Virus record (IMG/VR): IMGVR_UViG_3300021400_000447
Coordinates: 1 to 64,000 of that record
Strand: one strand, 5' to 3'
DNA length: 64,000 bases
From: a virus
Lineage: Duplodnaviria > Caudoviricetes
The translations under genes were made by a program, and so were the position numbers. The notes below the pieces were generated by a model. It worked only from the letters and a program-made list of their open reading frames with translations. It ran no database searches and was not told where the DNA came from. Below, in pieces: positions 12,001 to 51,965 of the stretch. Every line of letters starts with the position of its first letter. The first letter of the stretch is position 1.

Positions 12001-12310
12001 ATATGAGACTTACATCTATGTGTCAAATGCAGAAATTAATCAATATGGTCTTATTACTGCTCCTTACAGCAATGCTAACGTTAAGTATCGCGGTTTAAGT
12101 GACGACTCAGTAATTAATATTAATAGCACTAGTAAAGGTTTAGGCGGTTGGATTAAAGCTAACGATTATTGGACACGTTCTATCACAACTGGCAGCAGTA
12201 CAGGTAACGGAGTTAATTTCATCTATGTAGATGCTGTAGATGGCGCACCAACTAATGCAACTAATACTTTCTAGGATGGCAGAAAATTCAGCTATATCTT
12301 AGCAATTTAA
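3068..12310 (+). CDS. Giant ~3080-aa virion/tail-associated protein: coiled-coil N-terminus, CotH-kinase-like region, LRRs, LamG-like and DUF6273-like C-terminus
   Basis: 15 track ORFs share one frame; every gap I translated is open apart from about 35 TAGs; GGAGGG RBS; TAA at 12308-12310; motifs [49 protein letters not shown]. Confidence 0.85.
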
Positions 12311-25800: not shown

Positions 25801-27754
25801 CACTAACGTTTACCATGGCTTGCGTCTTTACGCGCCGTTCCCTGTAAACAATACACGCACATCAGCTTACGCAGAATTTGATGCTGGGTCGTATCTCAAA
25901 TTAAACAACGATACAGACGCAACAGCAGCAGATACTGGCGCATTACGTGTGTTGGGTGGCGCAAGCATATCCAAATCATTGTATGCTAAACTTGGTATAT
26001 TTGACGCAATTTAGAATTATGTCATCGTAGATCGTACATCCACAACAATGACTGCTGGCGAACCATATACAGTCTTTTAGGCAAAATATAAAAACACAAC
26101 TGGCGATGGTACTGCAACAATTAGTGCAATACGTGTTATTGGCACAGATGAAGCCGCAACAAGCTCTGGCGCGTTAAATAATGGATGTGTTTTAATTGGT
26201 AGCGGTACTGGTTGTGTATGGTTCTCCGCTGGTGAGAGTAGTTCTGCGTTCCCGAAAGTAGTTAGTTATAATGATGAGAACGCATATATTAGCGCAGACG
26301 CACATATTGAATTTTATTCTAGCAATAGTACGAATGCGGCCAACTTATCTACCGATAATATAAGACATATCGCGCACTTTGACAAGACAGGCACAACTAC
26401 ATTCTATAATAACATGACACTAGAAGCTGGTAGTATAACAGCAAATGCAGGTAATATTTTTTCTGGGACCGACAGCGCAAATGTGGAACGTGACGTTGGA
26501 GTTAAAACAACAGGCGGCGATTTGTATCTATACTCTACGCCAGCAGGCAATCGCGGTTTATATACTCACGCGCACGGTACTGGTGCGGCGAAAAATATTA
26601 TATCAATAGATACAAATAACAATGCTACTTTTGCTGGTCATAGTTCATTAGATATACCAATTAACTGGACAATTAGCAATGTAACACGCGGCATGGCAAA
26701 TCCCTCTTCCGACCTGTGGTATGGCGGCCGCACATTAATAGATTCGTCTGGTTTAACTGGCGATTTAACAAAACGTCTATATCGCGAAGAAGCATTAATA
26801 GAAACAAATGGAAATAACAGTTATTTTTTCCGCACTTACAACAACGCCGGCACGACAGCCGAACACGTTTATTTACGTCTACTTGCAGGCCCAGCGTCTA
26901 CAGGAATTAATAAACAAATAATAACAAATTCCGACTTCATAAGAGTAAATTCTGATACAGATCGTAATCTTGGTAGAGAGTTCAGAGCTACACGTGGAAC
27001 TCGTTCTATTGAATTTGGATTTGGAACTGCCGGTGTTAATCGTGGTATTTATGATACAACATTAGCATAGTGGGTGTTTTATTCAGATGATTCAAATACT
27101 TATTTAAGAACAGTATTACCTCTCGCAACAGAAACACAAGACTTAGGATCTGCGACTTACAAATGGCAAAATCTTTATACCAAAGGCATCTAGGCAGATA
27201 CAATTACAATTACAGACACAAACGCAGTTAGACACTTGAGGTTCTCACGTACAGGTTGGAACTATATTACTGCACCGAAAGGTGGCAGCCTTGCTTTTAG
27301 TGTAGGAGATTTCGCTGGCACTGGCACATGTCCACTATTAATTACTGGCACAATAAATGACAGCAATCAACTTACAGCTGGCGCACTATTTGCAGGATTG
27401 ACTAGTGTAGTTGATTTGGGTAGAAATACTAATTACTTCAAAACAGCATATATTAACACAGTTTCTGCATATGAATTATTATATTTAAATTCTGGTTCAA
27501 ATACTAAAGCAATAGTATTCTAGCAAGGCGGTACTGAGCGTGCACGAATCAATACCAAAGGCCATCTACAAGTCAATACAAAAGTAGCACAAGATGCATT
27601 TGGTATTTTAGCTAACGATGCTATTGGTACAACTTCTCGCTATAGCTTTACATCTATACCTGTTAATGACGACGCAACAGCGCAAACAGTAAATGAGCAC
27701 GCATATATGCAATACAACACTGCTGATGATAGTATAGACTTTATTTTTAATTAA
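22826..27754 (+). CDS. Long tail-fibre/receptor-binding protein (~1642 aa)
   Basis: Eight track fragments in frame; gaps open except TAG; YLPLSGG.MTG, SPAFTGTPTAPT, DLGS....W..LY motifs; ends TAA. Confidence 0.8.
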
Positions 27755-37347: not shown

Positions 37348-37360
37348 AAATATAGACAGT

Positions 37361-37446
37361 GGGGAGGTACCCAAGTGGCCGAAGGGAGCGACCTACTAAG
37401 TCGCCAGCGCCTCACGGCGGCGTGGGTTCGAATCCCACCCTCCCCG
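37361..37446 (+). tRNA. tRNA-Ser(ACT), unusual A34 anticodon
   Basis: Acceptor GGGGAGG/CCTCCCC, G73, long variable arm, anticodon arm GCGAC-CTACTAA-GTCGC, T loop TTCGAAT. Confidence 0.85.
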
Positions 37447-37468
37447 TTGAAAAGAAAGGAGCCATACT

Positions 37469-38134
37469 ATGGAGAAGTACCATAAAATTGAGACGATGTT
37501 TGAGCGCGATACCGAAGGTAAGCATCAGCTTCGTTACGGCGTGTTTCGTGATGAGACTGTTGAATATCTTTCTCACATGGATTGGGAATGGACTGAGAAG
37601 GTCGATGGTACGAACGTTCGTGTACATTGGGACGGCTATCATGTTGAATTTGGTGGCCGCACCGATAATGCACAGATGCCAGTCTTTCTTATGGAAAAGC
37701 TAACGCAAATTTTCAAGACGCCCGCGGCTGAAGAGATGTTTGAGCAGCTTTTTGGAGAAAAAGATGTTATTCTCTTTGGCGAAGGATATGGTAATAGAAT
37801 CCAGAAGGTTGGCTCTTGTTATATTCCTGATGGTGTTGGTTTTATCCTGTTCGATGTGATGATTGGCGGAAACTATCAGCCTCGTGATAGTGTTGTAAAG
37901 ATCGCAGAAGCGTTCTCTATTTCTGTTGTGCCGATTGTTGGGCGTGGAACTCTGTTCGATGCTCTTCGATATGTCGCAACGCATCCTACTTCCATTGTCG
38001 CGCAGAAGGAATGCGGAATGGAAGGCGTTGTTTGCCGACCAATGATTGAGCTTCGTGACCGTTGTGGTAAGCGTGTGATTGTTAAAATTAAGTGGAATGA
38101 TGTAAAGGAGCTAATTGAAAGTGATCAGATTTAA
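37469..38134 (+). CDS. RNA ligase (Rnl2-like nucleotidyltransferase)
   Basis: YHKI, WTEKVDGTN motif I, LFGEGYG, FILFDV, EGVVCRP, VKIK; no TAG. Confidence 0.85.
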   Translation: MEKYHKIETMFERDTEGKHQLRYGVFRDETVEYLSHMDWEWTEKVDGTNVRVHWDGYHVEFGGRTDNAQMPVFLMEKLTQIFKTPAAEEMFEQLFGEKDVILFGEGYGNRIQKVGSCYIPDGVGFILFDVMIGGNYQPRDSVVKIAEAFSISVVPIVGRGTLFDALRYVATHPTSIVAQKECGMEGVVCRPMIELRDRCGKRVIVKIKWNDVKELIESDQI

Positions 38135-38333
38135 GATTAGTTATTGGGATGAAGATGCAAAAGACGCCATCACTGAACATGGTATTGCGGCAATTAAGAC
38201 TTCAATTGGAGCTACTGTGGATGAAATTTATCAGTATTATGGCGCGGAGAACGTTTATGAACTATTCTTTTATGAGCTTGAGAGTTCAATTGTTCCTGAT
38301 GAACTACATGGTTTTCTTCGTGAGAATGAGTAA
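38115..38333 (+). CDS. Small acidic hypothetical protein (start uncertain)
   Basis: Fills gap between ligase and next promoter. Confidence 0.5.
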   Translation: MKVIRFKISYWDEDAKDAITEHGIAAIKTSIGATVDEIYQYYGAENVYELFFYELESSIVPDELHGFLRENE

Positions 38334-38362
38334 TTGACTTTAGAAAAAAATTTTGATATAAT
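38334..38362 (+). promoter_or_regulatory. sigmaA promoter
   Basis: TTGACT-17-TATAAT, TG extension. Confidence 0.8.
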
Positions 38363-38384
38363 ACTTATAGACAGTGAGGGATGG

Positions 38385-38460
38385 GCTCCTGTGGCGCAGT
38401 TGGTAGCGCAACGGACTTTTAATCCGTGTGCCGCGGGTTCAAATCCCGCCAGGGGCACCA
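38385..38460 (+). tRNA. tRNA-Lys(TTT)
   Basis: ACGGA-CTTTTAA-TCCGT; encoded CCA. Confidence 0.9.
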
Positions 38461-38646
38461 TTATCCAAGACAGTAAGGATATAAAACTAAGCTGCGGTTT
38501 CTCACTCGAAGTCAGTAGAAGAGTGTGCGCTACACTTCGGAAATGGGAAGTGGGGATAAGCAAAGACCAGACCTGATGTTTTATGACGGTCGCCACGTAA
38601 TGTGGAACAAAGGTAATTCCGTTCATAAGGCTATATGGAACAACAA

Positions 38647-38721
38647 CGGGGAGTAGTTCAGTTTGGCTAGAATGGTCGATTTGGGATCGACAGGTCGCAA
38701 GTTCAAATCTTGTCTCCCCGA
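38647..38721 (+). tRNA. tRNA-Pro(TGG)
   Basis: CGGGGAG/CTCCCCG; GTCGA-TTTGGGA-TCGAC. Confidence 0.9.
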
Positions 38722-39202
38722 CTTGTCCAAGGCAGTGAGGACATTAAATTTATACTGTAACCTTACCCAAAGTTTATCTTTGGGAACATGGTGAAAACCG
38801 GAGCTGTGACGCCGGCCGGGATATAAAATTATTAGGCCACCGCTTATAGGAGAGATTGCTTAATGTGTTCTTCACTCCTTGCCCGTAAGCTAAATAAAGA
38901 ATCCTCACATTGCCGATGTAGTTAAAGCTACTACTGCCGGCGACCTCAGTGAAATTCTGGGGCGAGTACAATAAAAAAGCTTACAATGCATTTGGGTTGT
39001 AGGTATCCCTCTCCACGGAGGAAAACCTTCTATATGCTGACGAAAAACGGGAGACGAGAGAAGTGTTGGATGCTCTCACTGCGCGGGAAGTCGCAGAATC
39101 GCGGACTATGACCACCGACCCCGTCACATAGTGTAGTCAGTATTTTGGGCTTTGGTAAGAGGACCATATAAGTAGTTGATAGTGGAACAATAACCCAAAC
39201 TT

Positions 39203-39279
39203 CGGAACTTAACTCAGTTGGTTAGAGTGGCGGTCTTATAAACCGCAAGTCCTGGGTTCAAGTCCCAGAGTTCCGACCA
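39203..39279 (+). tRNA. tRNA-Ile(TAT), non-lysidine AUA decoder
   Basis: CGGAACT/AGTTCCG; GCGGT-CTTATAA-ACCGC; encoded CCA. Confidence 0.9.
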
Positions 39280-39353
39280 TCTACCCAGCGTGCTGGGTGA
39301 AATCTTTGGCGGGGATGTTCCCCGCCAATATTATAATCTAGGAGCATTTCTAA

Positions 39354-39638
39354 ATGGATCATTTTTATCGAATTATTGTATTTTTTCAAATTCCATCAGG
39401 CACAAGACTTCCTAATTATGACACCGTAGGATATTATAAATATTTCAAAGATGCAGAACAATGTGTTAGAAATAATTCATATGACATAAACGAACAAGGT
39501 GCGCATCCAGCGGCTATGATTATTGAAACCGAATATGGCATGTATCCATTTTGTCCTGCTCGAGCATATTATGAATGGAAAAATGGGGAATATATTCGAG
39601 AAAAAGAACCTAAAGTGCTTCATGGATATAATATCTGA
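39354..39638 (+). CDS. Hypothetical protein
   Basis: AGGAG RBS; ends TGA. Confidence 0.65.
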   Translation: MDHFYRIIVFFQIPSGTRLPNYDTVGYYKYFKDAEQCVRNNSYDINEQGAHPAAMIIETEYGMYPFCPARAYYEWKNGEYIREKEPKVLHGYNI

Positions 39639-39647
39639 TCTAAAAAT

Positions 39648-39676
39648 TTGACCTCTAATAAAAATTTTGCTATAAT
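39648..39676 (+). promoter_or_regulatory. sigmaA promoter
   Basis: TTGACC-17-TATAAT, TG extension. Confidence 0.8.
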
Positions 39677-39710
39677 ATATATGCAAGGTTGAGAGAAGGA
39701 GCTGATTCCT

Positions 39711-39836
39711 ATGCCGGATGATTTCGTAACGAATGATTCATATGACGCATATGATGCTGATTATGAAGAAGAAGAACAGACTTGGGACGAGTATTGCCGA
39801 GAACTGGCGCGGGAAAGCGATGATTTGACAGATTAA
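39711..39836 (+). CDS. 41-aa highly acidic peptide
   Basis: AAGGAG RBS; own promoter; 17 of 41 residues D/E; below track length cutoff. Confidence 0.6.
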   Translation: MPDDFVTNDSYDAYDADYEEEEQTWDEYCRELARESDDLTD

Positions 39837-39853
39837 AAAAATTATGATATAAT
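39825..39853 (+). promoter_or_regulatory. sigmaA promoter upstream of suppressor tRNA locus
   Basis: TTGACA-17-TATAAT, TG extension. Confidence 0.85.
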
Positions 39854-40119
39854 TTATTATGGGCTTGGGATAACTTTGGACACAGCTTATCCTGCCTAAA
39901 ATTAACAGGTGTTACAGAGCCACCTTTAAAGCCCTGGCTTCTGGGCGCAATCCCAAAAATCTACGACCGTTAACACGGATTTAGCACTTCAACTACCACC
40001 GGCACGAAATCCGCCGCGAAAGCGAACGAGTATGCTTGGTTTAACAAGCGGGCGGCTCAGTAGTGATATGTGGCTTAGCGGAAAACGGTATATAAAGAAG
40101 CGAAGTAAAGTGCAATTGT

Positions 40120-40384
40120 AGCCCCTTAGTTCAACGGTAGAACACCGGTCTCTAGTCTTAATTTGGAGCTTCATATGGGGACATATGAATGAAAACGCCG
40201 CTAATTCGGAGAAAGCTTAACTGCCAACCCCGAGCAAGGAGAAATCCGTGTGTAGAGACTTTACACGGCGCATCTAGAACAGATGAAGATAAAGTCCGGA
40301 CCACAATGCAAAAGCAATGCGTGTGAAGAAAACCGTTATATCCCTCTGAAGGAGGTAGTCTGGGTTCGAATCCCAGAGGGGCCA
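40120..40384 (+). tRNA. Amber suppressor tRNA (anticodon CTA), intron-split; exons 40120-40153 and 40329-40384
   Basis: D arm GTTC-AACGGTA-GAAC; spliced anticodon arm CCGGT-CTCT|AAA-ACCGT; T arm CTGGG-TTCGAAT-CCCAG; acceptor GCCCCT/AGGGGC with A.C mismatch at 1-72; 23-nt extra arm. Confidence 0.75.
40154..40328 (+). ncRNA. Compact group I intron (~175 nt) between anticodon positions 35 and 36
   Basis: P1 CTCT/GGAG with U.G at splice site; P2 TTCATATG-GGGA-CATATGAA; P3 CGCCG/CGGCG; P7 GAGACT/AGTCC; P8 CATCT/AGATG; J8/7 AAGATA; terminal G; TTT guide can pair 3' exon AAA (P10). Confidence 0.85.
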
Positions 40385-40389
40385 CAATA

Positions 40390-40418
40390 TTGACTTTTCT
40401 TACAAAATATACTATAAT
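40390..40418 (+). promoter_or_regulatory. sigmaA promoter
   Basis: TTGACT-17-TATAAT. Confidence 0.8.
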
Positions 40419-40437
40419 ATATTTGTAAGAAAAATTT

Positions 40438-40508
40438 GGGGGATTCGCTAATCGGATTAGCACGCGGCTGTTAACCGCGCTAGAGAGGTTCAACTCCTCT
40501 ATCCCCCG
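40438..40508 (+). tRNA. tRNA-Asn(GTT)
   Basis: GGGGGAT/ATCCCCC; CGCGG-CTGTTAA-CCGCG; G73. Confidence 0.8.
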
Positions 40509-40602
40509 TTCGTGCTTTGATGACCAAATGTAGCTTGGCAGTAAATAAATATTAATGCAGATGTGGGGTTATGATGAAAGCCTTTACCTTAAAAGACTAT
40601 AT

Positions 40603-40673
40603 GCGCGATTAGTGTAATGGTAACATTCGACCCTTCCAAGGTTGCGTTGACGGTTCGAGCCCGTTATCGCGCT
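40603..40673 (+). tRNA. tRNA-Gly(TCC)
   Basis: GCGCGAT/ATCGCGC; loop CTTCCAA; U73. Confidence 0.85.
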
Positions 40674-40710
40674 CTTACACAAAGAGAAAATAAAATATCG
40701 TGGGAGAATA

Positions 40711-40944
40711 ATGAAAATGAGAAACGACAAGACTCTCGAACAGGCAGTTTCTGATACTGTTGCATACATTAAGCGTGCTGAAGCAGAACGCTTAGATGAA
40801 AATCTGCGAATGAATCATTCTCAGATTGCGGAAATCGTGAGAGAAGAATTTACATTATTCGCCCGGCCAGAAGAAGACTATCAAACCACCATTGAGCGGG
40901 TCGGCCGCAGTATCATTGAAGAAACCGATCTTACCAGGTGGTAA
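40711..40944 (+). CDS. Hypothetical protein
   Basis: GGGAG RBS; between tRNAs; ends TAA. Confidence 0.6.
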   Translation: MKMRNDKTLEQAVSDTVAYIKRAEAERLDENLRMNHSQIAEIVREEFTLFARPEEDYQTTIERVGRSIIEETDLTRW

Positions 40945-40947
40945 TTT

Positions 40948-41020
40948 GCTGGATTAGCTCAATTGGTAGAGCATTTGATTTGTAATCAAAGGGTTCTCGG
41001 TTCAAGTCCGACATCCAGCT
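40948..41020 (+). tRNA. tRNA-Thr(TGT)
   Basis: GCTGGAT/ATCCAGC; TTTGA-TTTGTAA-TCAAA. Confidence 0.9.
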
Positions 41021-41029
41021 CTTTATAAT

Positions 41030-41101
41030 GGGTTCATATATCAATGGTAGATGGCCTGCTTTGCAAGCAGGAGGTTGAGGGTTCAAATCCCTCTGGATCC
41101 A
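41030..41101 (+). tRNA. tRNA-Ala(TGC)
   Basis: G3.U70 pair; CCTGC-TTTGCAA-GCAGG. Confidence 0.85.
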
Positions 41102-41483
41102 CTTCAACCCAAGTAAAACGGGAATTGACTCGTTATAACCAGCCAATTTTAATTGGCGGCCTGATGAACGTTCGACTCGTTCGTTGCTTAAGTCGGTCTG
41201 AGGGCGGAACTGGCATCCGCCGCCTAAATGGAGATACAGGATTGTCACCCTGTCTACTTAAGCAAGTAGTTTAATGGCTAAAACCGTAGGCGACGTGGCG
41301 CGGACACTGGTTTGGGTGAGGTTTCTGCTATGACCAAAAAGACATAAAATATAGCAGCAATGTGTGCTTATGACGGTATTGTTACGTTGCGGAGCAATAC
41401 TTGAGGCTTCATAGCAGTTAGCGTTAATCTGTGCGCAACAGTTAAAAAACGCATTTTGTGTTTATTTCTCTGGAGGAAAATAA

Positions 41484-42023
41484 ATGGCTGAACCTAGACT
41501 AAAGATTCTACCCCCTTGGACTATTACTATTCGTAAGTTTGAAGCTCTATTTGATGGTGATCCCCAGATTGCATGCAACTGCAACTTTGGCGGCACAGAA
41601 CCTTCTATTACGCTCGCCTGTAACAATGGCGACAAGGTTGCAGCACTTCTACAGCTTCTACCTGATGAGATTGGTTTCGGGCATGTAAAGCTTAAGGTTG
41701 TGGTAGATGGCACTCCATCTAATCGTGTTTTTACAAGCAAGGTCGAACTTTTTGACACAGCGTTTAAGGGCAACCCAGCGTATGCCTATTCTGTTTGCCC
41801 TGCCGAGGAAGGTTATCAGTGGATTGGAACGACATATGTTGTATTCAATAATTGTGTAGTACAGTTTGCAGCGGATAATCTAAATGATTGCCATGGTGTT
41901 ATTAGCACACTTTATGAGACAATTGCTGATGAACTACTAACTGGGCCTGCGACTGAGGGCGTGTTCTTCAACACCAACGTTGAACGTGCTAATCTTGGTA
42001 TGCCGCTTGGCGAGTGGCCGTAA
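41484..42023 (+). CDS. Conserved phage hypothetical protein
   Basis: GGAGG RBS; 179 aa; no TAG. Confidence 0.75.
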   Translation: MAEPRLKILPPWTITIRKFEALFDGDPQIACNCNFGGTEPSITLACNNGDKVAALLQLLPDEIGFGHVKLKVVVDGTPSNRVFTSKVELFDTAFKGNPAYAYSVCPAEEGYQWIGTTYVVFNNCVVQFAADNLNDCHGVISTLYETIADELLTGPATEGVFFNTNVERANLGMPLGEWP

Positions 42024-42081
42024 TATCTGACCTACTAGTGTAGGTACAGTTTCTGGGAGCGTGTATAAGCGCTTCCTGCTT

Positions 42082-42159
42082 CGGGATGTAGCACAGTTGG
42101 TTTAGTGCAGCGCTCTGATAAGGCGAAGACCGGTGGTTCAAGTCCATCCATCCCGACCA
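42082..42159 (+). tRNA. tRNA-Ile(GAT)
   Basis: CGGGATG/CATCCCG; loop CTGATAA; encoded CCA. Confidence 0.85.
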
Positions 42160-42256
42160 GTGCGGGCGACCGGTCCGCAGAAGCGTCCGATCAACGCAAA
42201 ACCGGCCATGTGTGTTCCGCAACTCCACATGTAAAATTAAAAAAGTTGCGGCGCGT

Positions 42257-42329
42257 GCGAGATTAGCTCAGCTGGTAGAGCATTTGGCTTACATCCAAAG
42301 GGTCAGCGGTTCGAATCCGTTATCTTGCA
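42257..42329 (+). tRNA. tRNA-Val(TAC)
   Basis: GCGAGAT/ATCTTGC; TTTGG-CTTACAT-CCAAA. Confidence 0.9.
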
Positions 42330-42353
42330 CTATAAAATATTGGAGGTTATATT

Positions 42354-42539
42354 ATGAAGGAAGTTGTAGTTTATTTTACCAATGGCAATCGTGCAACGTT
42401 TGAAATGGATAAAGTACAATTTGTTGATGTTATTACTCCAAAAATGCTAGAAGAGCTCCAAGTTACTGATGGATATTCACTAGTACGGAGCGATACGATT
42501 AGTTTCGTCAAGGTACGAGAAAAGAAAGAGGAAGTATAA
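42354..42539 (+). CDS. Small hypothetical protein
   Basis: GGAGG RBS; TAATG coupling. Confidence 0.65.
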   Translation: MKEVVVYFTNGNRATFEMDKVQFVDVITPKMLEELQVTDGYSLVRSDTISFVKVREKKEEV

Positions 42540-42739
42540 TGAGGGACATTAATCGCATTCCTAAGATGCTTAAACTTATTGAGACTGTGTGGCGCGAAGT
42601 CCCAGATTGGCGGCTTGGGCAACTGCTTGTAAATGTTGTAAATACACTAGGCGGCGTGCCTATGGATAATAATTTGTTCTACATCGAGGATGAAGATCTA
42701 ATGAAGGCACTAGAGAAAATTGCTGAGAGGGATGGCTAA
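42539..42739 (+). CDS. Conserved phage protein (RDINRI..W...PDWRLGQL..FYIED family)
   Basis: Recognisable motif set. Confidence 0.75.
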   Translation: MRDINRIPKMLKLIETVWREVPDWRLGQLLVNVVNTLGGVPMDNNLFYIEDEDLMKALEKIAERDG

Positions 42740-42741
42740 AT

Positions 42742-42912
42742 ATGGAAACATTTCTTGTAATTTTTTCCGCAATTGGTGTTTGTGCGCTACTCTTTGGTCT
42801 TGGCTTATTTATTGTTAACCTACAGTAGCTTTTTGAGCGCGTGAGAAGTCTTGAAGAAACTGTATATAAGATTCAATATGGGGACAACGTGACTTTTAGT
42901 ACGAAAGATTAA
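42742..42912 (+). CDS. Small membrane protein, 1 TAG
   Basis: Hydrophobic N-terminus; open to TAA with TAG read-through. Confidence 0.5.
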
Positions 42913-43072
42913 TGCCGATGATTAATGACGTGCTTATGATTATTCTGATTGTTTTTTACAGCATCTTCCTACTGCTCTTTCTGGCAATGGTCGGCTTCGG
43001 CGTATACGAGTTTGTCGCTATGTGCAAAGATGAAAAAGAAGCCAGGAAGGCCAGGAAGGAGAGGGAAGAGAG

Positions 43073-43387
43073 GTGGAAGAAATGAGACTTATTGATGCTG
43101 ACGCGCTGTTAGAGAAAATGAAACACAGAAAAGAGTATGTCGGCAGACCGTCCGACCCGGTGTGCCTCGTTGAGGATGCGCCCGCCGTTGCAGAATGGAT
43201 AAACGTAAAGGACAGGACGCCGAAGATTGGACAAATGTGCCTTATCTGGGATGGGAAGAATGTGAAGGCTGGGGTTCATCTTTCGTGCGGCGTGTGGAGC
43301 GTTTCAAACACGCTCGAATACCCTGAATTTTGGATGCCACTACTGCTTGAGCCTCCGAAGGAGATGAGTAGAGATGCGACTAATTGA
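43073..43387 (+). CDS. RLIDAD/DUF551-like small protein
   Basis: MRLIDADAL, WINVKDRTP, FWMPL. Confidence 0.7.
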   Translation: MEEMRLIDADALLEKMKHRKEYVGRPSDPVCLVEDAPAVAEWINVKDRTPKIGQMCLIWDGKNVKAGVHLSCGVWSVSNTLEYPEFWMPLLLEPPKEMSRDATN

Positions 43388-43718
43388 TGCGGACACGCTA
43401 AAAGAAATCATTGGTGAATGTCCGGAAAACTGGACAGATTCGCCAGAAGAAGTTGAAGCATTTAATATGTGGCATCGTATTATGGATGACATAGATTCTA
43501 CTCCCACCGTGAAACCAGATTTTTGGATTAGCGTTGAGGAGCGCTTGCCTGATGACAGCATGGAAGTCCTTGTCTTACTAAAAATAAAAGATGTTCTTGT
43601 CCCAGACATGGGTGTATTAATAAGCGGCAATTGGTGGAGTACAATGTCTTACAATATGATGGTTGGTGACCCACTATTCTGGGCTGAGATTCCTCGCGGC
43701 CCTGATAATTACAAGTGA
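43374..43718 (+). CDS. RLIDAD/DUF551-like small protein
   Basis: MRLIDADTL, WISVEERLP, WAEIP. Confidence 0.7.
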   Translation: MRLIDADTLKEIIGECPENWTDSPEEVEAFNMWHRIMDDIDSTPTVKPDFWISVEERLPDDSMEVLVLLKIKDVLVPDMGVLISGNWWSTMSYNMMVGDPLFWAEIPRGPDNYK

Positions 43719-43743
43719 TACACAGATGTGGAGGTAGACGGAG

Positions 43744-44100
43744 ATGCGGCTGATTGATGCAGATAAGCTAATACGTAGTATCAATAGCATATCAGTTTTG
43801 ACCGGTCTTGGCCTTCAGCCTGTAATAACAATTGCAGATGTAAAAGAATTAATTAATGCAATACCAACAGCAAGTGACTGGATTAGCGTTAAAGAAAAAC
43901 TGCCTGCAACAAATGTTGAGGTGCTGGCAATGTATGTATACGATGACAAGCCTGGTGAGCGTTACGTTGAACCAACATTCTATTTTGATGATGGTAATGG
44001 TAAAGGACATTGGCACTTAGGTGATGAGCACACCTTTGGGCCTGTACGAAAAACAATAATAGCGTGGATGCCAATGCCAAAGCCGTATGAGGTGAGTTAA
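43744..44100 (+). CDS. RLIDAD/DUF551-like small protein
   Basis: MRLIDADKL, WISVKEKLP, AWMPMPKP. Confidence 0.7.
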   Translation: MRLIDADKLIRSINSISVLTGLGLQPVITIADVKELINAIPTASDWISVKEKLPATNVEVLAMYVYDDKPGERYVEPTFYFDDGNGKGHWHLGDEHTFGPVRKTIIAWMPMPKPYEVS

Positions 44101-44102
44101 AA

Positions 44103-44417
44103 ATGGCTGAATTTGATTTTGAAAACATCATTAAAAAAGGCGTTGAGGCGGCTATCAACGAGCCTGTATACGATGGCAAGAGTATCACAGAATGGGCGGC
44201 TGTCGGCATGAAAGCGCCGCAATGGATCAACGTGGAAGATAGAGTACCAGAAGATGCGCAAGATTACATCATATGCGTTCTCGCAGGTGACGGGACGAAG
44301 CATGTAACGATCGGAACATATGATGGGTGGCGCAAACGTTGGAATGATAAGTTCGGTGTCATATGGGTGCCTGACCGTGTGACCCATTGGATGCCATTCC
44401 CAGAACCACTAGCTTGA
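44103..44417 (+). CDS. DUF551-like small protein
   Basis: WINVEDRVP, VTHWMPFPEP. Confidence 0.7.
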   Translation: MAEFDFENIIKKGVEAAINEPVYDGKSITEWAAVGMKAPQWINVEDRVPEDAQDYIICVLAGDGTKHVTIGTYDGWRKRWNDKFGVIWVPDRVTHWMPFPEPLA

Positions 44418-44447
44418 CGCTAAAAGAATCAAATGGGAGACAGAACC

Positions 44448-44846
44448 ATGAAAATCATTGATTTTTCCAAAAAGGGCAATATAGTGCGCTTTTATTTGGG
44501 CGCTGATGACTTGCAAGAATGGTATGGCGACGATTGGAATGATGCGCCATATGAATATAATGCAGGAAAAGTATACGATCGATTTATCGTCGGTCACAAA
44601 GACATTGCCTTTCCGTTTGATACGTTTGTGCTTGAACCGTGTGAAGGACACGTGAATAGCAGATGGTGTAAGAATGATATGGTAACAAGACGTGTGCCAT
44701 GCATCATTGCTGTACCAAAAGAAAAGACAGAGGATAGCTGGTATGGACAGGATTTTGAGCACTGGGTTTGGACGGATGGAGTACAGCGATTTTTCTTTGG
44801 AGATAGAATGGAACTTGATGCAGAGGATGCGAGCGAAGATGCTTGA
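44448..44846 (+). CDS. Hypothetical protein (WYGDDWNDAPYEYNAG family)
   Basis: GGGAG RBS; ends TGA. Confidence 0.65.
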   Translation: MKIIDFSKKGNIVRFYLGADDLQEWYGDDWNDAPYEYNAGKVYDRFIVGHKDIAFPFDTFVLEPCEGHVNSRWCKNDMVTRRVPCIIAVPKEKTEDSWYGQDFEHWVWTDGVQRFFFGDRMELDAEDASEDA

Positions 44847-45129
44847 CAGGAAGAAGGTTATTAAAGGGCTAGAGTGCTGTACCAAATCACCTGACACCAT
44901 AGAGTTAGAGGATTGCCGCAGATGCCAATATAGGGATGAAAAGGATTGCTCCTGTGTGGTCATGCAGGACGCTCTCGCCCTGCTGAAAGAGCAGGAGCCT
45001 GTGGAACCGAAGAAACCAATCAGCGCGGATGACCCGTTCTACGAGTGCGGCAACTGTGGAATGCCCATTGCCAGCACCATGTATCAATTCTGTCCGTATT
45101 GCGGAAGGAAGGTAGATTGGAATGTCTGA
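44839..45129 (+). CDS. Zn-ribbon protein (DRKKVIKGLE.C family)
   Basis: CRRCQY, CGNCG, FCPYCGRKV.W. Confidence 0.7.
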   Translation: MLDRKKVIKGLECCTKSPDTIELEDCRRCQYRDEKDCSCVVMQDALALLKEQEPVEPKKPISADDPFYECGNCGMPIASTMYQFCPYCGRKVDWNV

Positions 45130-45454
45130 CCGGGAGAAGGTTATTAAGGAACTGGAAGAATGCCTCACTGCTTCGTGCAGAGGATTCTGGACTTGTCCGT
45201 ACAGCGACAATGCGTGGGATGCCGTTAGAGAAGCGCTGGCCCTGCTGAGAGAGCATGAGCCGATTGCACCTGTGAAGGTGAATAGGTACATCGAAACTAA
45301 CGAACACGGCGGCTGGTTTCCATCTGAAACTTATGATTGTGGAAATTGCGGCGCAGAATTGTGTAACAAGGCGAATTATTGTTACGTTTGTGGAAGGCCG
45401 GTGAAGTGGGATGTATCTGCTTGGCGGATGGCTATCTACACCGAGACAAGATAA
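45122..45454 (+). CDS. Zn-ribbon protein, paralogue of preceding gene
   Basis: DREKVIKELE.C, CGNCG, YCYVCGRPV.W. Confidence 0.7.
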   Translation: MSDREKVIKELEECLTASCRGFWTCPYSDNAWDAVREALALLREHEPIAPVKVNRYIETNEHGGWFPSETYDCGNCGAELCNKANYCYVCGRPVKWDVSAWRMAIYTETR

Positions 45455-46032
45455 GAAAGAATGAGGGCAAAGATGTGGATCCGATAAGCCATTTTAGGAA
45501 CAGATTCTATTATGGAGCAAATGAAGCTCATATTCCTTATTCAGATCTTGATGAAGAAGATCTCGAAGATGAAGAGCGCGACAGGTACTATCGGGCTAAG
45601 GAGTTCATTAAAGACACGCTTGACGATCCATGCGTATCTGTCTATTTGCGAACCAACTACCAAGGTATATTTGGCAATACTATGAGTCAAACTAAGTGGG
45701 ACAACCACGATTGGAGCGTTTACGCGGAAGTTGTTGCACAAAAATCAGACGAGGAACTCGAACCTTATCTTGCGGAACTTTTTGATTGGTGCAGCTTTAT
45801 CTACGATGATGGGACGGATGCAGACGTAATTGCTGAGAGGTTGAAGAAGTTTAAGCGTACTGATGGTTTTATGTATGCTGCAAAGATGGCAATACGAAGA
45901 GCAATGAATGATAGAACGATGAACCTATCCTCGAATTTTGACGTAGGTCTTCGGTGTGCGTTTTTGCCGGGAGAATATGAAATCTTGCTTGCAGAGATTA
46001 AAAATGAGGTGCAATTTGATGCGGTTAATTGA
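45379..46032 (+). CDS. Acidic hypothetical protein (start uncertain)
   Basis: Long open frame filling gap. Confidence 0.6.
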   Translation: MLRLWKAGEVGCICLADGYLHRDKIRKNEGKDVDPISHFRNRFYYGANEAHIPYSDLDEEDLEDEERDRYYRAKEFIKDTLDDPCVSVYLRTNYQGIFGNTMSQTKWDNHDWSVYAEVVAQKSDEELEPYLAELFDWCSFIYDDGTDADVIAERLKKFKRTDGFMYAAKMAIRRAMNDRTMNLSSNFDVGLRCAFLPGEYEILLAEIKNEVQFDAVN

Positions 46033-46249
46033 TGTCGATGCTGTGATTTCTCATTTCGATAGCTAGCCTCCTAATTACTATACTTCAAGTTACATTGTTT
46101 CTGTACTTAAGGCAGCACCAGCAGCATTAACAGGCATATATGGAACTTGTAAACCATTCCATAAATGTCTTGGCGAATATTATTCTCTTGTTGACAATCC
46201 AAGTTATAGTTATTGCCCGTATTGCGGGAAGAAAGTGGAAACAGAATGA
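46019..46249 (+). CDS. RLID/Zn-ribbon small protein, 1 TAG
   Basis: MRLIDVDAV..YCPYCGKKV; missing from track. Confidence 0.6.
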
Positions 46250-46596
46250 GGCATATTGATGCAGACGCCCTTGTCAGAACAATTGAAGATAAACGCTGTG
46301 CAGACTGTCCAGAAGTAAAGTCGCAACGATGCGGGGCATGTCAATGGGATGACGCGATCGCAATGATTGAGGAAGCACCAACCGCGGGTGGCTGGGTAAA
46401 CGTAAATGACAGGCTGCCAGATGGTGAATGCATTGCATATAGCGCGAAGTGGTTTGAGATGATAATCGGTTATGTCTACAAGGCAACGGCAAGTGATACA
46501 GGGTACGAGGCAGAAAGTGAAAACGAAGTTTTGCGTGATGTCACACATTGGATGCCATTTCCAAAACCACCGGACGAGGTGAACACGAATGCCTGA
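46246..46596 (+). CDS. RHIDAD/DUF551-like small protein
   Basis: MRHIDADAL, CADC..CGAC, WVNVNDRLP, VTHWMPFPKP. Confidence 0.7.
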   Translation: MRHIDADALVRTIEDKRCADCPEVKSQRCGACQWDDAIAMIEEAPTAGGWVNVNDRLPDGECIAYSAKWFEMIIGYVYKATASDTGYEAESENEVLRDVTHWMPFPKPPDEVNTNA

Positions 46597-46936
46597 GTGG
46601 GTGGTTGTAGTGAACTGTCAAGGCCAGCCATTCTTCTATCCGCAGAAAAATCTATTTTGTGGGCTTGTTGCGTTGACATGGCATTATTTGAAAAAGCGAA
46701 AGTATAGAACAATGAATTTCAAACTTAAACAGAGGTGGAGGTGAGCTAGTGTGGGTGATGTGATGATGCTGATTCTAGGGTTCATTGCTGGCTTCCTTTG
46801 CGTTGCTTTAGGAGAGACAAAGGTTCTTGAGAACGCAGTTCACACAGCTTATCAGGACGGTCTCCGGGACGGCGCGGAAGAAGCACTAGCTCGTTAGGAG
46901 GCAAGAGAAAAGCTAGATAATTGAGGTGATTTAGTA

Positions 46937-47197
46937 ATGGGTACTATTATAGCAATAGTGATTTTTGTAGTTGTGGTACTTAGCTCATTCATTGCCGGCT
47001 ATACAACAGGTTATGAAACTCAATGGATTTCAGACGAGAAACTTGCTAATCGTTATAATGGGTGGCTTACAAAAAGAGTTAAACACTTTGTATGCGGTAT
47101 GGTTCATGGGCATGACTGGGAGGATGACACTCCTCTACTCGACCAGGGTATTAAATTCCAAACTTGTAAGAGATGCGGCAAGGAAAGAATGGTTTAA
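46937..47197 (+). CDS. Small membrane protein with C-terminal Cys/His motif
   Basis: GAGGTG RBS; N-terminal TM; C..HGH..CKRC. Confidence 0.6.
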   Translation: MGTIIAIVIFVVVVLSSFIAGYTTGYETQWISDEKLANRYNGWLTKRVKHFVCGMVHGHDWEDDTPLLDQGIKFQTCKRCGKERMV

Positions 47198-47213
47198 TCA
47201 TCTCGTAAAAAAA

Positions 47214-47242
47214 TTGACTAGAGAAAAAAATTTTGATATAAT
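47214..47242 (+). promoter_or_regulatory. sigmaA promoter
   Basis: TTGACT-17-TATAAT, TG extension. Confidence 0.8.
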
Positions 47243-47276
47243 ATATATGAAAGATGAGGAAAGGAAGTAACAAAGC

Positions 47277-47549
47277 ATGCTGTTTAGGTACAAGGTCATG
47301 GTGGCTGAGACTTCTGAATCGCGCAATTATCGAGATGCTGGTATCGTTTCTGCTAATGACCTCATTAGTGCTGTAAAGCGCATTGCAGAGTATCATGGCG
47401 AAGAAAACATTATCGAGCTCCGAATTGAGTCAGTAAATGATATTGTAAGCGATGAAGAGCTTGGTGAAGTGATCGTTCCTGATTACAGAAAAGAGCGAGA
47501 TTGGTGCGATCACACTGCGCCGCTATTCTCTCTTGACAGCGAGGATTAA
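47277..47549 (+). CDS. Acidic hypothetical protein
   Basis: AAGGAAG RBS; ends TAA. Confidence 0.65.
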   Translation: MLFRYKVMVAETSESRNYRDAGIVSANDLISAVKRIAEYHGEENIIELRIESVNDIVSDEELGEVIVPDYRKERDWCDHTAPLFSLDSED

Positions 47550-47562
47550 ACCCCGCTAACAT

Positions 47563-47647
47563 GCTGGTATGGTGAAATAGGCAAACACAGCAGACTTAAA
47601 ATCTGCCGCCGTAAGGCTTGCCGGTTCAAGTCCGGCTACCAGCACCA
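47563..47647 (+). tRNA. tRNA-Leu(TAA)
   Basis: GCAGA-CTTAAAA-TCTGC; long variable arm; encoded CCA. Confidence 0.9.
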
Positions 47648-47912
47648 CCTAAATCAATAGGAGTTTTGAGACGGCTATTAGACTTAATACTCGGTCATAC
47701 TACAAATCCTATTGCCATCATGCGTCTGTAAACGCATGTGCGTCTGTTACAGCAGACAAAAGCGAAGCGACGAATGAGCTGGTACGCTCCCAGCCCTAAA
47801 GGATATATGTCGCCGGACACCTCGCCCGTTGAGGAGGAAAGAATAGGGTAAATGTTCTACCCCTATCACCAAAATGCAAGGGCATGCAGAATGGTTAATT
47901 TGAACATTTTAT

Positions 47913-47994
47913 GCCCGAGTGGCGGAATGGCAGACGCGCTTGACTCAAAATCAAGTTCACAAGAGTGTGGGTTCAAGTCCCACCTTGGGCACCA
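47913..47994 (+). tRNA. tRNA-Leu(CAA)
   Basis: CTTGA-CTCAAAA-TCAAG; long variable arm; encoded CCA. Confidence 0.9.
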
Positions 47995-47997
47995 TAT

Positions 47998-48070
47998 GCT
48001 CCATTAGCCCAATGGCAGAGGCGATGCGCTTAGAACGCATACAGTGAGAGTTCGAATCCCATCGAGAGTG
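47998..48070 (+). pseudogene. Degenerate tRNA with TAG (Leu) anticodon and short variable loop
   Basis: Intact D arm and ATGCG-CTTAGAA-CGCAT; T stem and acceptor 3' strand largely unpaired. Confidence 0.6.
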
Positions 48071-48096
48071 CTGTAAAAATATTGAAGGGAAAAGAA

Positions 48097-48573
48097 ATGC
48101 CGACTTTATATATCATTTGCGGCCCTAGTGGTAGCGGGAAATCTACTTGGGCAAAGAACTACATGATTGAACATGATGAACAAGATATTCGTTATGTTTC
48201 GCGCGATGAAATTCGTTATTCAATCGTTCATGATGATGAACCTTATTTTTCTCATGAACGTGAAGTTTTTCGCAAGTTTGTATCTACCATTGTAAACACG
48301 CTAATTGACGGATTTGACGTTATTGCTGATGCAACGCATCTTAATAGTGCTTCCCGCGCGAAGCTAACAAATGCAATCGATGCACGCTATTCTGATTATG
48401 ATATTATTTACGTAGTATTTAATGTTCATATTTCTGAGTGTATTCGGCGTAATGGTCTGCGAGAAGGACGAATGTGTGTGCCTGATGGTGTTATCGATCG
48501 GCAATTCCATGATTTTTACGCTCCTACGCTTGAAGAAGATGTACGAGCGACTCGCATAATTTACGTATATTAA
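48097..48573 (+). CDS. P-loop kinase (polynucleotide-kinase/AAA_33-like)
   Basis: GPSGSGKST, SRDEIR, DATHL, ECIRRN..R...VP..VI. Confidence 0.8.
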   Translation: MPTLYIICGPSGSGKSTWAKNYMIEHDEQDIRYVSRDEIRYSIVHDDEPYFSHEREVFRKFVSTIVNTLIDGFDVIADATHLNSASRAKLTNAIDARYSDYDIIYVVFNVHISECIRRNGLREGRMCVPDGVIDRQFHDFYAPTLEEDVRATRIIYVY

Positions 48574-48576
48574 AAT

Positions 48577-48605
48577 TTGACTTTTAAGAAAAAATGTAAT
48601 ATAAT
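48577..48605 (+). promoter_or_regulatory. sigmaA promoter
   Basis: TTGACT-17-TATAAT. Confidence 0.75.
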
Positions 48606-48640
48606 ATATATATATGTAAGATGAGAAAGGGGCTAGAAAT

Positions 48641-48946
48641 ATGAAACCGTATAGTATGGGAAGCCACAAGCGTCGTAAGCATCAGCGCTGGCTGAATGCG
48701 TTCTGCCGTGAAGTGAATAAAACAATGGAACATGATCCTCTGTGGATGGGCAGATTCGTTGTCGAGCAGAAGCGGACTGAAATGCATTGGTTTCCTGACA
48801 ATAGCGGCGGCGTACTTTGGTGTGTGCTTCAGTTTAGAGACAAGAAAACTGGCCAAACCAAATTCTGGCCAACAACCTGCTTTACTGCGACTTGGGACAT
48901 TTGGGAACGTATGAATGATTTCATTGTAAATGATTGTAAGGCATGA
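48641..48946 (+). CDS. Hypothetical protein
   Basis: AAGGGG RBS; ends TGA. Confidence 0.65.
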   Translation: MKPYSMGSHKRRKHQRWLNAFCREVNKTMEHDPLWMGRFVVEQKRTEMHWFPDNSGGVLWCVLQFRDKKTGQTKFWPTTCFTATWDIWERMNDFIVNDCKA

Positions 48947-49131
48947 AGAAAAGAAGGAGTACACAAATGAACGATAATGCAGCAAGAATTGAACTTACAT
49001 ATTATCCGGCAGATAATAGCAGAGAACGTTATCGCGAACTTGTCTGCGATGTAAACGAAGATCTAACGTTTGAAGAATTTGCGTAGATTTGTAATTATTT
49101 TGGAGCTGTATTGGGTTTCAGAGACAGATAT

Positions 49132-49160
49132 TTGACTCCAAACTAAGAATATGATATAAT
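49132..49160 (+). promoter_or_regulatory. sigmaA promoter of the 594-nt RNA
   Basis: TTGACT-17-TATAAT, TG extension; 8 nt upstream of the RNA 5' helix. Confidence 0.85.
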
Positions 49161-49168
49161 AAATATAA

Positions 49169-49762
49169 GGAGCATTTTCCTTAATAAATGATTGACCCAA
49201 GTGCAGATGTGCCAACCACACTGCTTGGGCTATCTGAATAACAGCCATACGTTACGGCCCGGGATACTAGGCACACGCGGCCGCCGAAACAGCAATGCTA
49301 GGCGATAGGAAGAAACTTCTAATGTTAAGGATAGGCGCTTAAATATTCGCAATCAAAAGTATTATTCCTCTTGGCCACATAATAGAAAGCTCATTGAATA
49401 GGTGAGCCGAATCCAGATAAGGTGGTAGCTGGTAACTGCTGCAAACTCTGGAATTACCATAAGTGGCTAATGTCGATGAAAGCCAGAAATGGCATATAAA
49501 AGAGGTTTAAAGTAAAAGTAGGCCAATACGACATTAATTGTATGTTAACACATAAGCAAGTATGCTTAATATGATTATTGCTGAATGGTTTGGCTGAAAT
49601 TTCAGGGTAAGCAATCCCTGCTATACATGGCTGTAAAGCGGGTTAAGAAAGTTACGGGGTAGCTCCTTGTGGCTCAGCTCTTAATTCTATAGTGACTGAA
49701 TATGATTGAAGAATATTATAAGTATGGCGAAGGCTGCAATCATTTGTTAAGGAAAATGCTCC
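49169..49762 (+). ncRNA. Large ornate non-coding RNA, 594 nt (ROOL/GOLLD-like candidate)
   Basis: 49169-49194 pairs with 49737-49762 (26 bp, one G.U); nested GCCATAC/GTATGGC; many internal hairpins; no credible ORF. Confidence 0.75.
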
Positions 49763-49784
49763 TAATTTTTATTTAGGTGATTCT

Positions 49785-50729
49785 ATGGCAGAAAACAAAT
49801 TTACCGCGACAGATTTGAAAGAAATGCAATCATAGGATTTGGCATGGAAAATCTAGCGTACTGTTGCGAAATTATTGGAATTTTATAATTATTATGACGG
49901 AAAAGTATATATAAGTTTTTCTGGCGGGAAAGACAGCACTGTTTTACTACATATTGCACGAAGGTTATTTCCTGATATAAAAGCCGTATATTCAGATACC
50001 GGTTTGGAATATCCTGAGATAAAAGAATTTGTAAAAACATGGGATAACGTAGATATAATTCGTCCAAAAAGAACTTTCAGGCAAGTAATAGAATAGTTTG
50101 GATATCCTGTTGTAAGTAAATATGTCGCTGGTTACGTTTCAACCGCGCGAAAACATCCAGAATCAACTCGCGCGCAATATTTACGCGGTGAAATACAATC
50201 CAAAGCGTTCGGCTTTGGAGATGGAAAGTGGGCATATTTAGTAGACGCACCATTCAAGATTAGCGCTTGGTGCTGCGATGTAATGAAAAAATAGCCACTA
50301 CATCAATATCAACGTGAAACTGGCCTGTATCCAATCGTTGGAACGCTCGCAGAAGAATCTATGTCCCGTAGGAATCAATGGTTAAAACAAGGCTGCAATG
50401 TTTTTGATACTAAAGAACCAATTAGTAAGCCTTTGTCATTTTGGACGACAAATGATATTCTCCAATATTTAAAAGAGTTCAATGTGCCCTATTGCCCAAT
50501 ATATGGAGAAATCATAGAAGATAAAAATGGTAAGTTACATACATCTAAACTACGCGCAACTGGTTGCATTTTTTGTATGTTCGGCGCGCACTTAGAAAAA
50601 GAACCAAATCGTTTTTAGCAGTTAAAGATAACCCATCCAAAAATTTGGGAATATTGCTTAAGACCATGGGACAAAGGCGGATTAGGCATGAAAGAAGTGT
50701 TAGAATATTTAAATATCAAATATGAATGA
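49785..50729 (+). CDS. PAPS-reductase-family protein, 5 TAG
   Basis: SFSGGKDSTVL, DTGLEYPEI, CCDVMKK.P, GTLAEES..R, RATGCIFCMFG, RF-Q(TAG)-QLK.THPK. Confidence 0.85.
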
Positions 50730-51401: not shown

Positions 51402-51965
51402 ATGAATAAAATCTTTTTTACAAGCGATACACATTTTTGTCATGATAAAGATTTTGTATGGCAGAAACGTGGTTTTTCTAGTGTTCAGGATATGAATGCA
51501 GCACTAGTGTGCAGATGGAACGAAGTTGTTGATGAAGACGACACAGTTTTTCATCTTGGCGATTTAGCACTTGGCGACGTTGAAGAAGCTATGACGTACA
51601 TTCGCCAGTTAAAAGGACAAATAATTTGGATCGGCGGTAATCATGATACAGAAAATAAAATTCAAAGGATTACACGGCATAATCTAAATATTAATTTTGT
51701 AGGTTATGCGTATATTATGAAATATCATAAACTTCATTTTTATCTTTCTCACTATCCTACCATCACAGCCAACTTTGATGATAAATATTTTTCGCAGCAC
51801 GTAATTAACCTTCACGGACATACGCATCAAGTAGATCACTTTATGACTGTTGAAAACCCTTTTATGTATAACGTTGGTGTTGATGCTTGCAATAATACGC
51901 CGATTGAAATTGACAAGGTAATTGATGATATATCTTGTAGATGGAGGGCGTTGCAAGAGGAATAA
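51402..51965 (+). CDS. Calcineurin-like metallophosphoesterase
   Basis: SDTHFCH, HLGD, GNHD, SHYP, HGHTH. Confidence 0.9.
   Translation: MNKIFFTSDTHFCHDKDFVWQKRGFSSVQDMNAALVCRWNEVVDEDDTVFHLGDLALGDVEEAMTYIRQLKGQIIWIGGNHDTENKIQRITRHNLNINFVGYAYIMKYHKLHFYLSHYPTITANFDDKYFSQHVINLHGHTHQVDHFMTVENPFMYNVGVDACNNTPIEIDKVIDDISCRWRALQEE

Follow-up and report, generated by a model that had tools for sequence, protein, structure and literature searches.

A predicted ROOL RNA gene beside the tRNA island of a phage that reads TAG as a sense codon

Introduction

Downstream of a series of tRNA genes in an uncultured virus lies a stretch of 594 nt that begins just after a promoter-like sequence, pairs with itself end to end, and is followed closely by a gene resembling PAPS reductases. 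The question raised by this locus is whether the stretch specifies a new class of large ornate RNA or a member of a known family and, beyond that, whether such an RNA would act in its own right or as the leader of the message behind it. The window, by which is meant the entire 64,000 nt of DNA analyzed here, comes from a source record that is an 81.4-kb uncultured virus fragment, 46% complete by CheckV. One known family that comes into consideration is ROOL, a phage and prophage RNA often located near tRNA islands (PMC5737381, PMC12286853), and the original prediction for the locus had named either a ROOL-class RNA or a new ornate RNA, leaving the choice between them to a search of Rfam.

Identity of the RNA

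The whole window was scanned against Rfam 15, and the interval 48800-50200 was searched permissively at E <= 1. ROOL (RF03087) matches 49173-49755 on the + strand with 311.8 bits (E = 7.7e-71), where the gathering score is 99.1; the match covers positions 1-574 of the 574 in the model and is not truncated. No Rfam family besides ROOL appears in 48800-50200 at E <= 1, and GOLLD, OLE and raiA, the other families that the original prediction had proposed to compare by cmsearch, are therefore excluded, with RF03087 far above its cut-off and the remaining three without a match. The prediction itself had held that a strong Rfam match would make this a known family rather than a novel one, and by that reasoning the RNA is known: its ROOL half is borne out at full length, and its new-class half falls away. 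The features of the RNA and its promoter are as follows, with the evidence for each in brackets.

49132-49160, + strand: predicted sigma-70-type promoter, TTGACT, 17-nt spacer and TG-n-TATAAT (11 of 12 consensus positions, extended -10)
49169-49762, + strand: predicted ROOL RNA gene, 594 nt (Rfam match 49173-49755, covariation, folding z)
49169-49194, + strand: 5' arm of the terminal helix P1, 26 bp (complementarity, covariation)
49524-49590, approximate boundaries, + strand: variable linker (low posterior probability, indels relative to the model)
49668-49674, + strand: hairpin loop GUAGCUC, containing AGCU, a palindrome of 4 nt (it caps helix 26; columns 504-510)
49737-49762, + strand: 3' arm of P1, followed by the U-rich run TAATTTTTATTT (complementarity)

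A search of IMG/VR viral contigs with a conserved ROOL motif yielded 66 loci, and the ten of these other ROOL loci that were checked with Rfam are all full-length, with scores of 275-367 bits. The score of the window's copy lies inside that range, which marks it as an average ROOL member. Thus, 49169-49762 is very probably a phage-encoded ROOL RNA gene (Rfam RF03087), judging from its sequence, and it is an ordinary full-length member of a known, structurally solved RNA family rather than a new one.

A conserved fold closed by a terminal helix

The top inverted repeat of the region is P1, a duplex of 49169-49194 and 49737-49762 made up of 25 Watson-Crick pairs and one G.U, exactly the 26-bp closing helix that had been described from the sequence; at 92% complementarity the repeat comes to 37 nt (49158-49194 with 49737-49773). 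The complementarity of the ends thus runs 11 positions beyond P1, with 9 of the 11 pairing (49158-49168 with 49763-49773), and this extension reaches into the -10 box on one side and the downstream U-rich run on the other. Only transcripts initiated ahead of the ROOL promoter could form these extra pairs.

The closest relatives of the RNA are found in loci L004 (3146-3727), L064 (13323-13910, - strand) and L046 (2079-2677, - strand), which are about 69% identical to the window's sequence. An RNAalifold consensus of the window's sequence and these three relatives contains 169 predicted pairs, 49 of them changed on both sides and yet still paired, with 99.0% of cells paired over the four sequences; since the three relatives are 91-95% identical among themselves, this covariation represents effectively two lineages and few independent events. 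Sliding the 3' partners by 1-3 columns leaves only 2-6 doubly changed pairs as compared to the 49 of 169 observed, and the observed pairing values were reached by none of 500 shuffles. P1 shares in this pattern, with 23 pairs aligned to the relatives, seven changed on both sides, and 100% of cells paired. Furthermore, the folding energy of the + strand stands well below that of dinucleotide shuffles (z = -6.58). The RNA is assigned to the + strand because its invariant G.U pairs would become C.A on the other strand, and because the model matches in that direction.

Most of the local pairing that had been noticed in the sequence is part of this fold: the stems CCCAAG/CTTGGG, GCTCA/TGAGC, TCCAGA/TCTGGA and CCTCTT/AAGAGG each occur as a helix both in the Rfam consensus and in the RNAalifold structure. 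The palindrome CTGAAATTTCAG, listed with them as a further local stem, forms a hairpin in neither structure, and its halves belong to two different helices. A second long-range helix, nested within P1 and joining 49244-49250 to 49722-49728, had also been proposed, and what stands of it is a perfect 7-nt complementarity; it has no place in the conserved fold. In all three relatives its 3' arm reads GUACGGC, which leaves a central A.C mismatch with no compensating change, and both arms are already engaged in conserved or covarying local helices. The 5' arm lies within a local stem with covarying inner pairs (helices 6 and 7), and the 3' arm is taken up by a short junction helix with a compensatory change, followed by a conserved GAAG-loop hairpin (helices 11 and 27). 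The nested 7-bp helix was rejected on these grounds, and the match between its arms is probably a chance complementarity.

The variable linker is poorly conserved, and it occupies the family's usual position for such a linker, in the 3' half. Columns about 362-429 of the RNAalifold alignment, which correspond to it, are unalignable among the four sequences.

Promoter and transcription start

The promoter that had been predicted to end at 49160 is near-consensus, as the 11 matched positions attest, and it is one of a set. The pattern TTGAC-N17-19-TATAAT occurs at 15 sites in the window, from 1450 to 63946, all on the + strand, where 0.4 would be expected from shuffles; these sites are therefore regarded as the phage's own class of strong promoter and not as chance matches. 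Most of the 15 have a TG before the -10 element, and several are placed directly before tRNA genes (37319, 38334 and 40390). The same -35 element and ATGATATAATAAATA block are found upstream of ROOL in L004 and L046, with 22 additional nt between the promoter block and P1 in those two loci.

From the usual spacing of such promoters, the transcription start is predicted at about 49167-49169, that is, at the first base of P1 or no more than 2 nt from it. Host RNA polymerase would then begin the transcript at the foot of the terminal helix, and the 5' end of the RNA would be locked immediately into the 26-bp P1.

Genomic context and TAG recoding

Thirteen tRNA genes are located at 37360-48071, and ROOL begins 1.1 kb downstream of the last of them. 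This is the common situation among the 66 ROOL-motif viral loci, where tRNAs are found in 61 and lie within 2.5 kb of the motif in 58. The neighboring genes and the extent of recoding in the window are given below.

48082-48573, upstream of ROOL: polynucleotide-kinase-like P-loop kinase (phrog_505, PF13671)
49785-50729, + strand: PAPS-reductase-like gene with five in-frame TAG codons (PF01507, E = 1.7e-20; phrog_424, E = 7.9e-50)
51402-51965, downstream of ROOL: phosphoesterase (phrog_547)
585-63914 of the window: region in which TAG is read as sense, for example 3068-12310, 22826-27754 and 49785-50729

Two small ORFs separate the P-loop kinase from ROOL, which is flanked, at the edge of the tRNA island, by an RNA-repair-like kinase and a phosphoesterase. 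A skipping-rope RNA (RF02924) is situated inside the tRNA island at 41193-41260 (38.1 bits, cut-off 36.7), and L064 likewise has one at 10486-10553 (53.8 bits); tmRNA genes adjoin the ROOLs of L042, L005 and L060.

TAG is a sense codon in this phage. Open-frame coverage of the window rises sharply when TAG is read as sense, and frames of 3080 aa (35 TAG) and 1642 aa (21 TAG) are open only under read-through. Between about 36 and 49 kb, where the tRNAs lie, many small genes contain no TAG. ARAGORN called no tRNA with a CUA anticodon in the 81 kb; the segment at 40120-40384, which it did not call as a tRNA, has the look of an amber-suppressor tRNA into which a group I intron is inserted. The match of the Rfam model Intron_gpI to 40142-40321 scores 34.1 bits, short of the 50 required (E = 6.5e-7 over a searched span of 701 bases), and the sequence on either side of the match is readable as tRNA halves. 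L004 carries a group I intron at 1871-2055 that scores above the cut-off, with 58.3 bits. The tRNA at 37360-37447 is of class II, with a long variable arm, and its anticodon loop is CUACUAA, which would give the anticodon ACU with an unusual A34. In its acceptor stem this tRNA is similar to the class II CUA suppressor tRNAs (loop CUCUAAA) located beside the ROOLs of L004 and L064.

ORF coverage being too noisy a measure in loci of 4-15 kb, recoding among the 66 loci was gauged by counting suppressor tRNAs. Such tRNAs are present in eight, with the anticodon CUA in L004, L005, L042, L043 and L064, and UCA in L002, L023 and L039. A search of one literature library found no paper that links ROOL or GOLLD to recoded phages, and the sole match pairing ROOL with "suppressor tRNA" concerns engineered cargo.

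The downstream gene and alternative readings

Only if its TAG codons are read through (TAG=Q) does the product of the PAPS-reductase-like gene align over its length with PF01507 and phrog_424. Its ATG at 49785 is separated from the end of P1 by a gap of 22 nt, which contains TAATTTTTATTT and then an AGGTGA ribosome-binding site. A sequence scan found no terminator-like site on the + strand in 48500-50500, and no promoter-like site on the + strand between the 3' end of ROOL and 50433; the phage's own type of promoter does not recur until 51165. Read-through from ROOL into the gene is probable because the short gap holds neither a stop nor a restart signal, and co-transcription of the two, as originally suggested, is plausible on the sequence.

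This arrangement invites another reading, namely that the RNA serves chiefly in cis, as a riboswitch-like or stabilizing 5' leader of the PAPS-reductase-like mRNA, rather than as a free-standing RNA. The spacing of the gap, its ribosome-binding site and the lack of terminator or promoter hits just described all suit a leader, as does the finding that an ORF starts 12-41 nt past the Rfam match in six of the 11 ROOL loci examined. A PAPS-reductase homologue, however, is found nearby in none of the 66 ROOL loci; conserved synteny between ROOL and PAPS reductase was accordingly rejected, and so was a shared family of downstream ORFs, since the ORFs that follow different ROOLs are unrelated to one another. 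The ROOL of L011 is followed by a clear hairpin-plus-T-run terminator, that of L065 comes directly after a tRNA, and the ROOLs of solved structure assemble alone (PMC12286853). Taken together, these observations make a role mainly as a leader very unlikely, and a ROOL RNA that is an entity in itself is preferred. Somewhat less remote, though still improbable, is a reading that keeps the ROOL cage and adds to it: in this phage lineage ROOL would work not as a free 594-nt RNA but as the leading domain of a longer transcript, with its 5' end buried in the 26-bp helix, such that a cage gathers up to eight copies of whatever sequence lies downstream, here the TAG-containing PAPS-reductase-like mRNA. 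The grounds for considering it are the closely following ORFs in six of 11 loci together with the missing terminator after the window's ROOL, the occurrence of amber- or opal-suppressor tRNAs in eight of the 66 loci, two of which are among the three nearest relatives, and the tolerance of the cage for additions, as 3' fusions are reported, in the account that PMC12515178 gives of Ling et al., not to disturb the ROOL octamer. If this were true, messages could be stabilized or co-localized in a phage that switches the meaning of TAG.

Two further readings bear on the nature of the RNA itself. That it belongs to a new ornate class merely similar to ROOL might be argued from the distance of its nearest relatives, which at only about 69% identity are the closest found here, and from a blastn search of 49100-49800 that found no match in 50,697 deposited phage records. 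Sequence divergence of this kind is set against a covariance-model match that is full-length, three times the gathering score and midway among the scores of other ROOL loci, and the probability left to a new class is very small indeed. The stretch might instead encode a small protein. The original prediction saw no credible ORF, and under table 11 there is in fact none longer than 40 aa inside 49169-49762; in a phage that reads TAG as sense, read-through opens a frame of 92 codons at 49192-49470. This frame is not open in the relatives, and a comparison of the window with them gives 29, 24 and 17 substitutions at the first, second and third codon positions, hence no third-position excess, along with five indel columns. 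The bases concerned also take part in covarying helices. With neither a conserved frame nor a third-position excess, the coding reading that assumes TAG read-through was rejected, and a protein encoded here is extremely improbable.

Assembly and possible function

The solved ROOLs provide a guide to what the window's RNA may do. The ROOL env-120 assembles as a hollow homo-octameric cage of D4 symmetry that measures about 280 A across; kissing loops and A-minor contacts hold this cage together, and it is stable down to nanomolar concentrations (PMC12286853). Solved ROOLs self-assemble without protein, and the variable linker is disordered and located inside the cage in the solved structures (PMC12286853). 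The E. faecalis ROOL is an octamer and the L. salivarius ROOL a hexamer, the latter because of an ultrashort apical stem, and the two planes of the cage are joined by a symmetric kissing loop of 4 bp (PMC12990946). By homology, the window's RNA is expected to fold into a flat multi-junction monomer. Contacts of the loop-loop and A-minor kinds would then join such monomers, protein-free, in a hollow cage of dihedral symmetry, which is most probably octameric and would have the variable linker (about 49524-49590) on its inner side. Family members differ in oligomeric state, hexamer versus octamer (PMC12990946), and sequence does not reveal it.

Two candidate contacts can be suggested. The hairpin loop GUAGCUC, with its AGCU palindrome, is a candidate for the L18/L15 symmetric kissing loop that joins half-cages, as mapped from the text of PMC12286853 and PMC12990946; the corresponding loop in the relatives is GUCGCUA. 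A loop UGGUAA has its complement in the junction UUACCA, immediately 3' of the hairpin to which the loop belongs, and the Rfam consensus reads UGGcA / UgCCA at these places. This pair may correspond to a published inter-subunit contact, a candidate mapped from the published text, and a search for the loop-junction pattern in the 66 loci and the window captured only seven of the 67 sequences.

What the cage would be for is a matter of speculation. The best guess, which follows hypotheses in PMC12286853 and PMC12990946, is that ROOL serves as an abundant RNA scaffold or cage within a phage module for the takeover of RNA metabolism and translation. Such a module might comprise the tRNAs, the suppressor tRNA, the RNA-repair-like kinase and the phosphoesterase, and the cage would hold or shield some RNA or ribosomal component.

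Implications

The analysis settles a possible new ornate RNA as a textbook ROOL that is detectable by a standard Rfam scan, and it contributes a further natural ROOL, whose nearest relatives found here share about 69% identity with it. The clean promoter and a predicted start at the foot of P1 make the locus a convenient construct for assembly studies. Furthermore, the gene is placed in the RNA island of a TAG-recoded phage, beside an apparent intron-split amber-suppressor tRNA. The recoded-phage context is a modest aside that may merit inclusion in the search for ROOL function.

Comparison with known systems

No family-defining feature differs between the window's copy and other ROOLs. Its length of 594 nt is close to the family mean of 581; it has the closing terminal helix, the compensated multi-junction helices and the linker at the usual position; and it is found in a phage, beside a tRNA island. 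Two minor differences can be pointed out. P1 is 26 bp in the window as compared to 16 in the Rfam model, and long A/U-rich closing helices are also indicated in other viral ROOL loci by duplexfold, a rough method that over-extends helices. The other difference is that the host phage of this copy reads TAG as a sense codon. GOLLD, the large ornate RNA of phages and prophages that forms a 14-mer cage, is unrelated to ROOL in sequence and secondary structure (PMC12286853), yet the two are alike in being large structured phage RNAs located near tRNA genes and forming cages of RNA only (PMC12286853).
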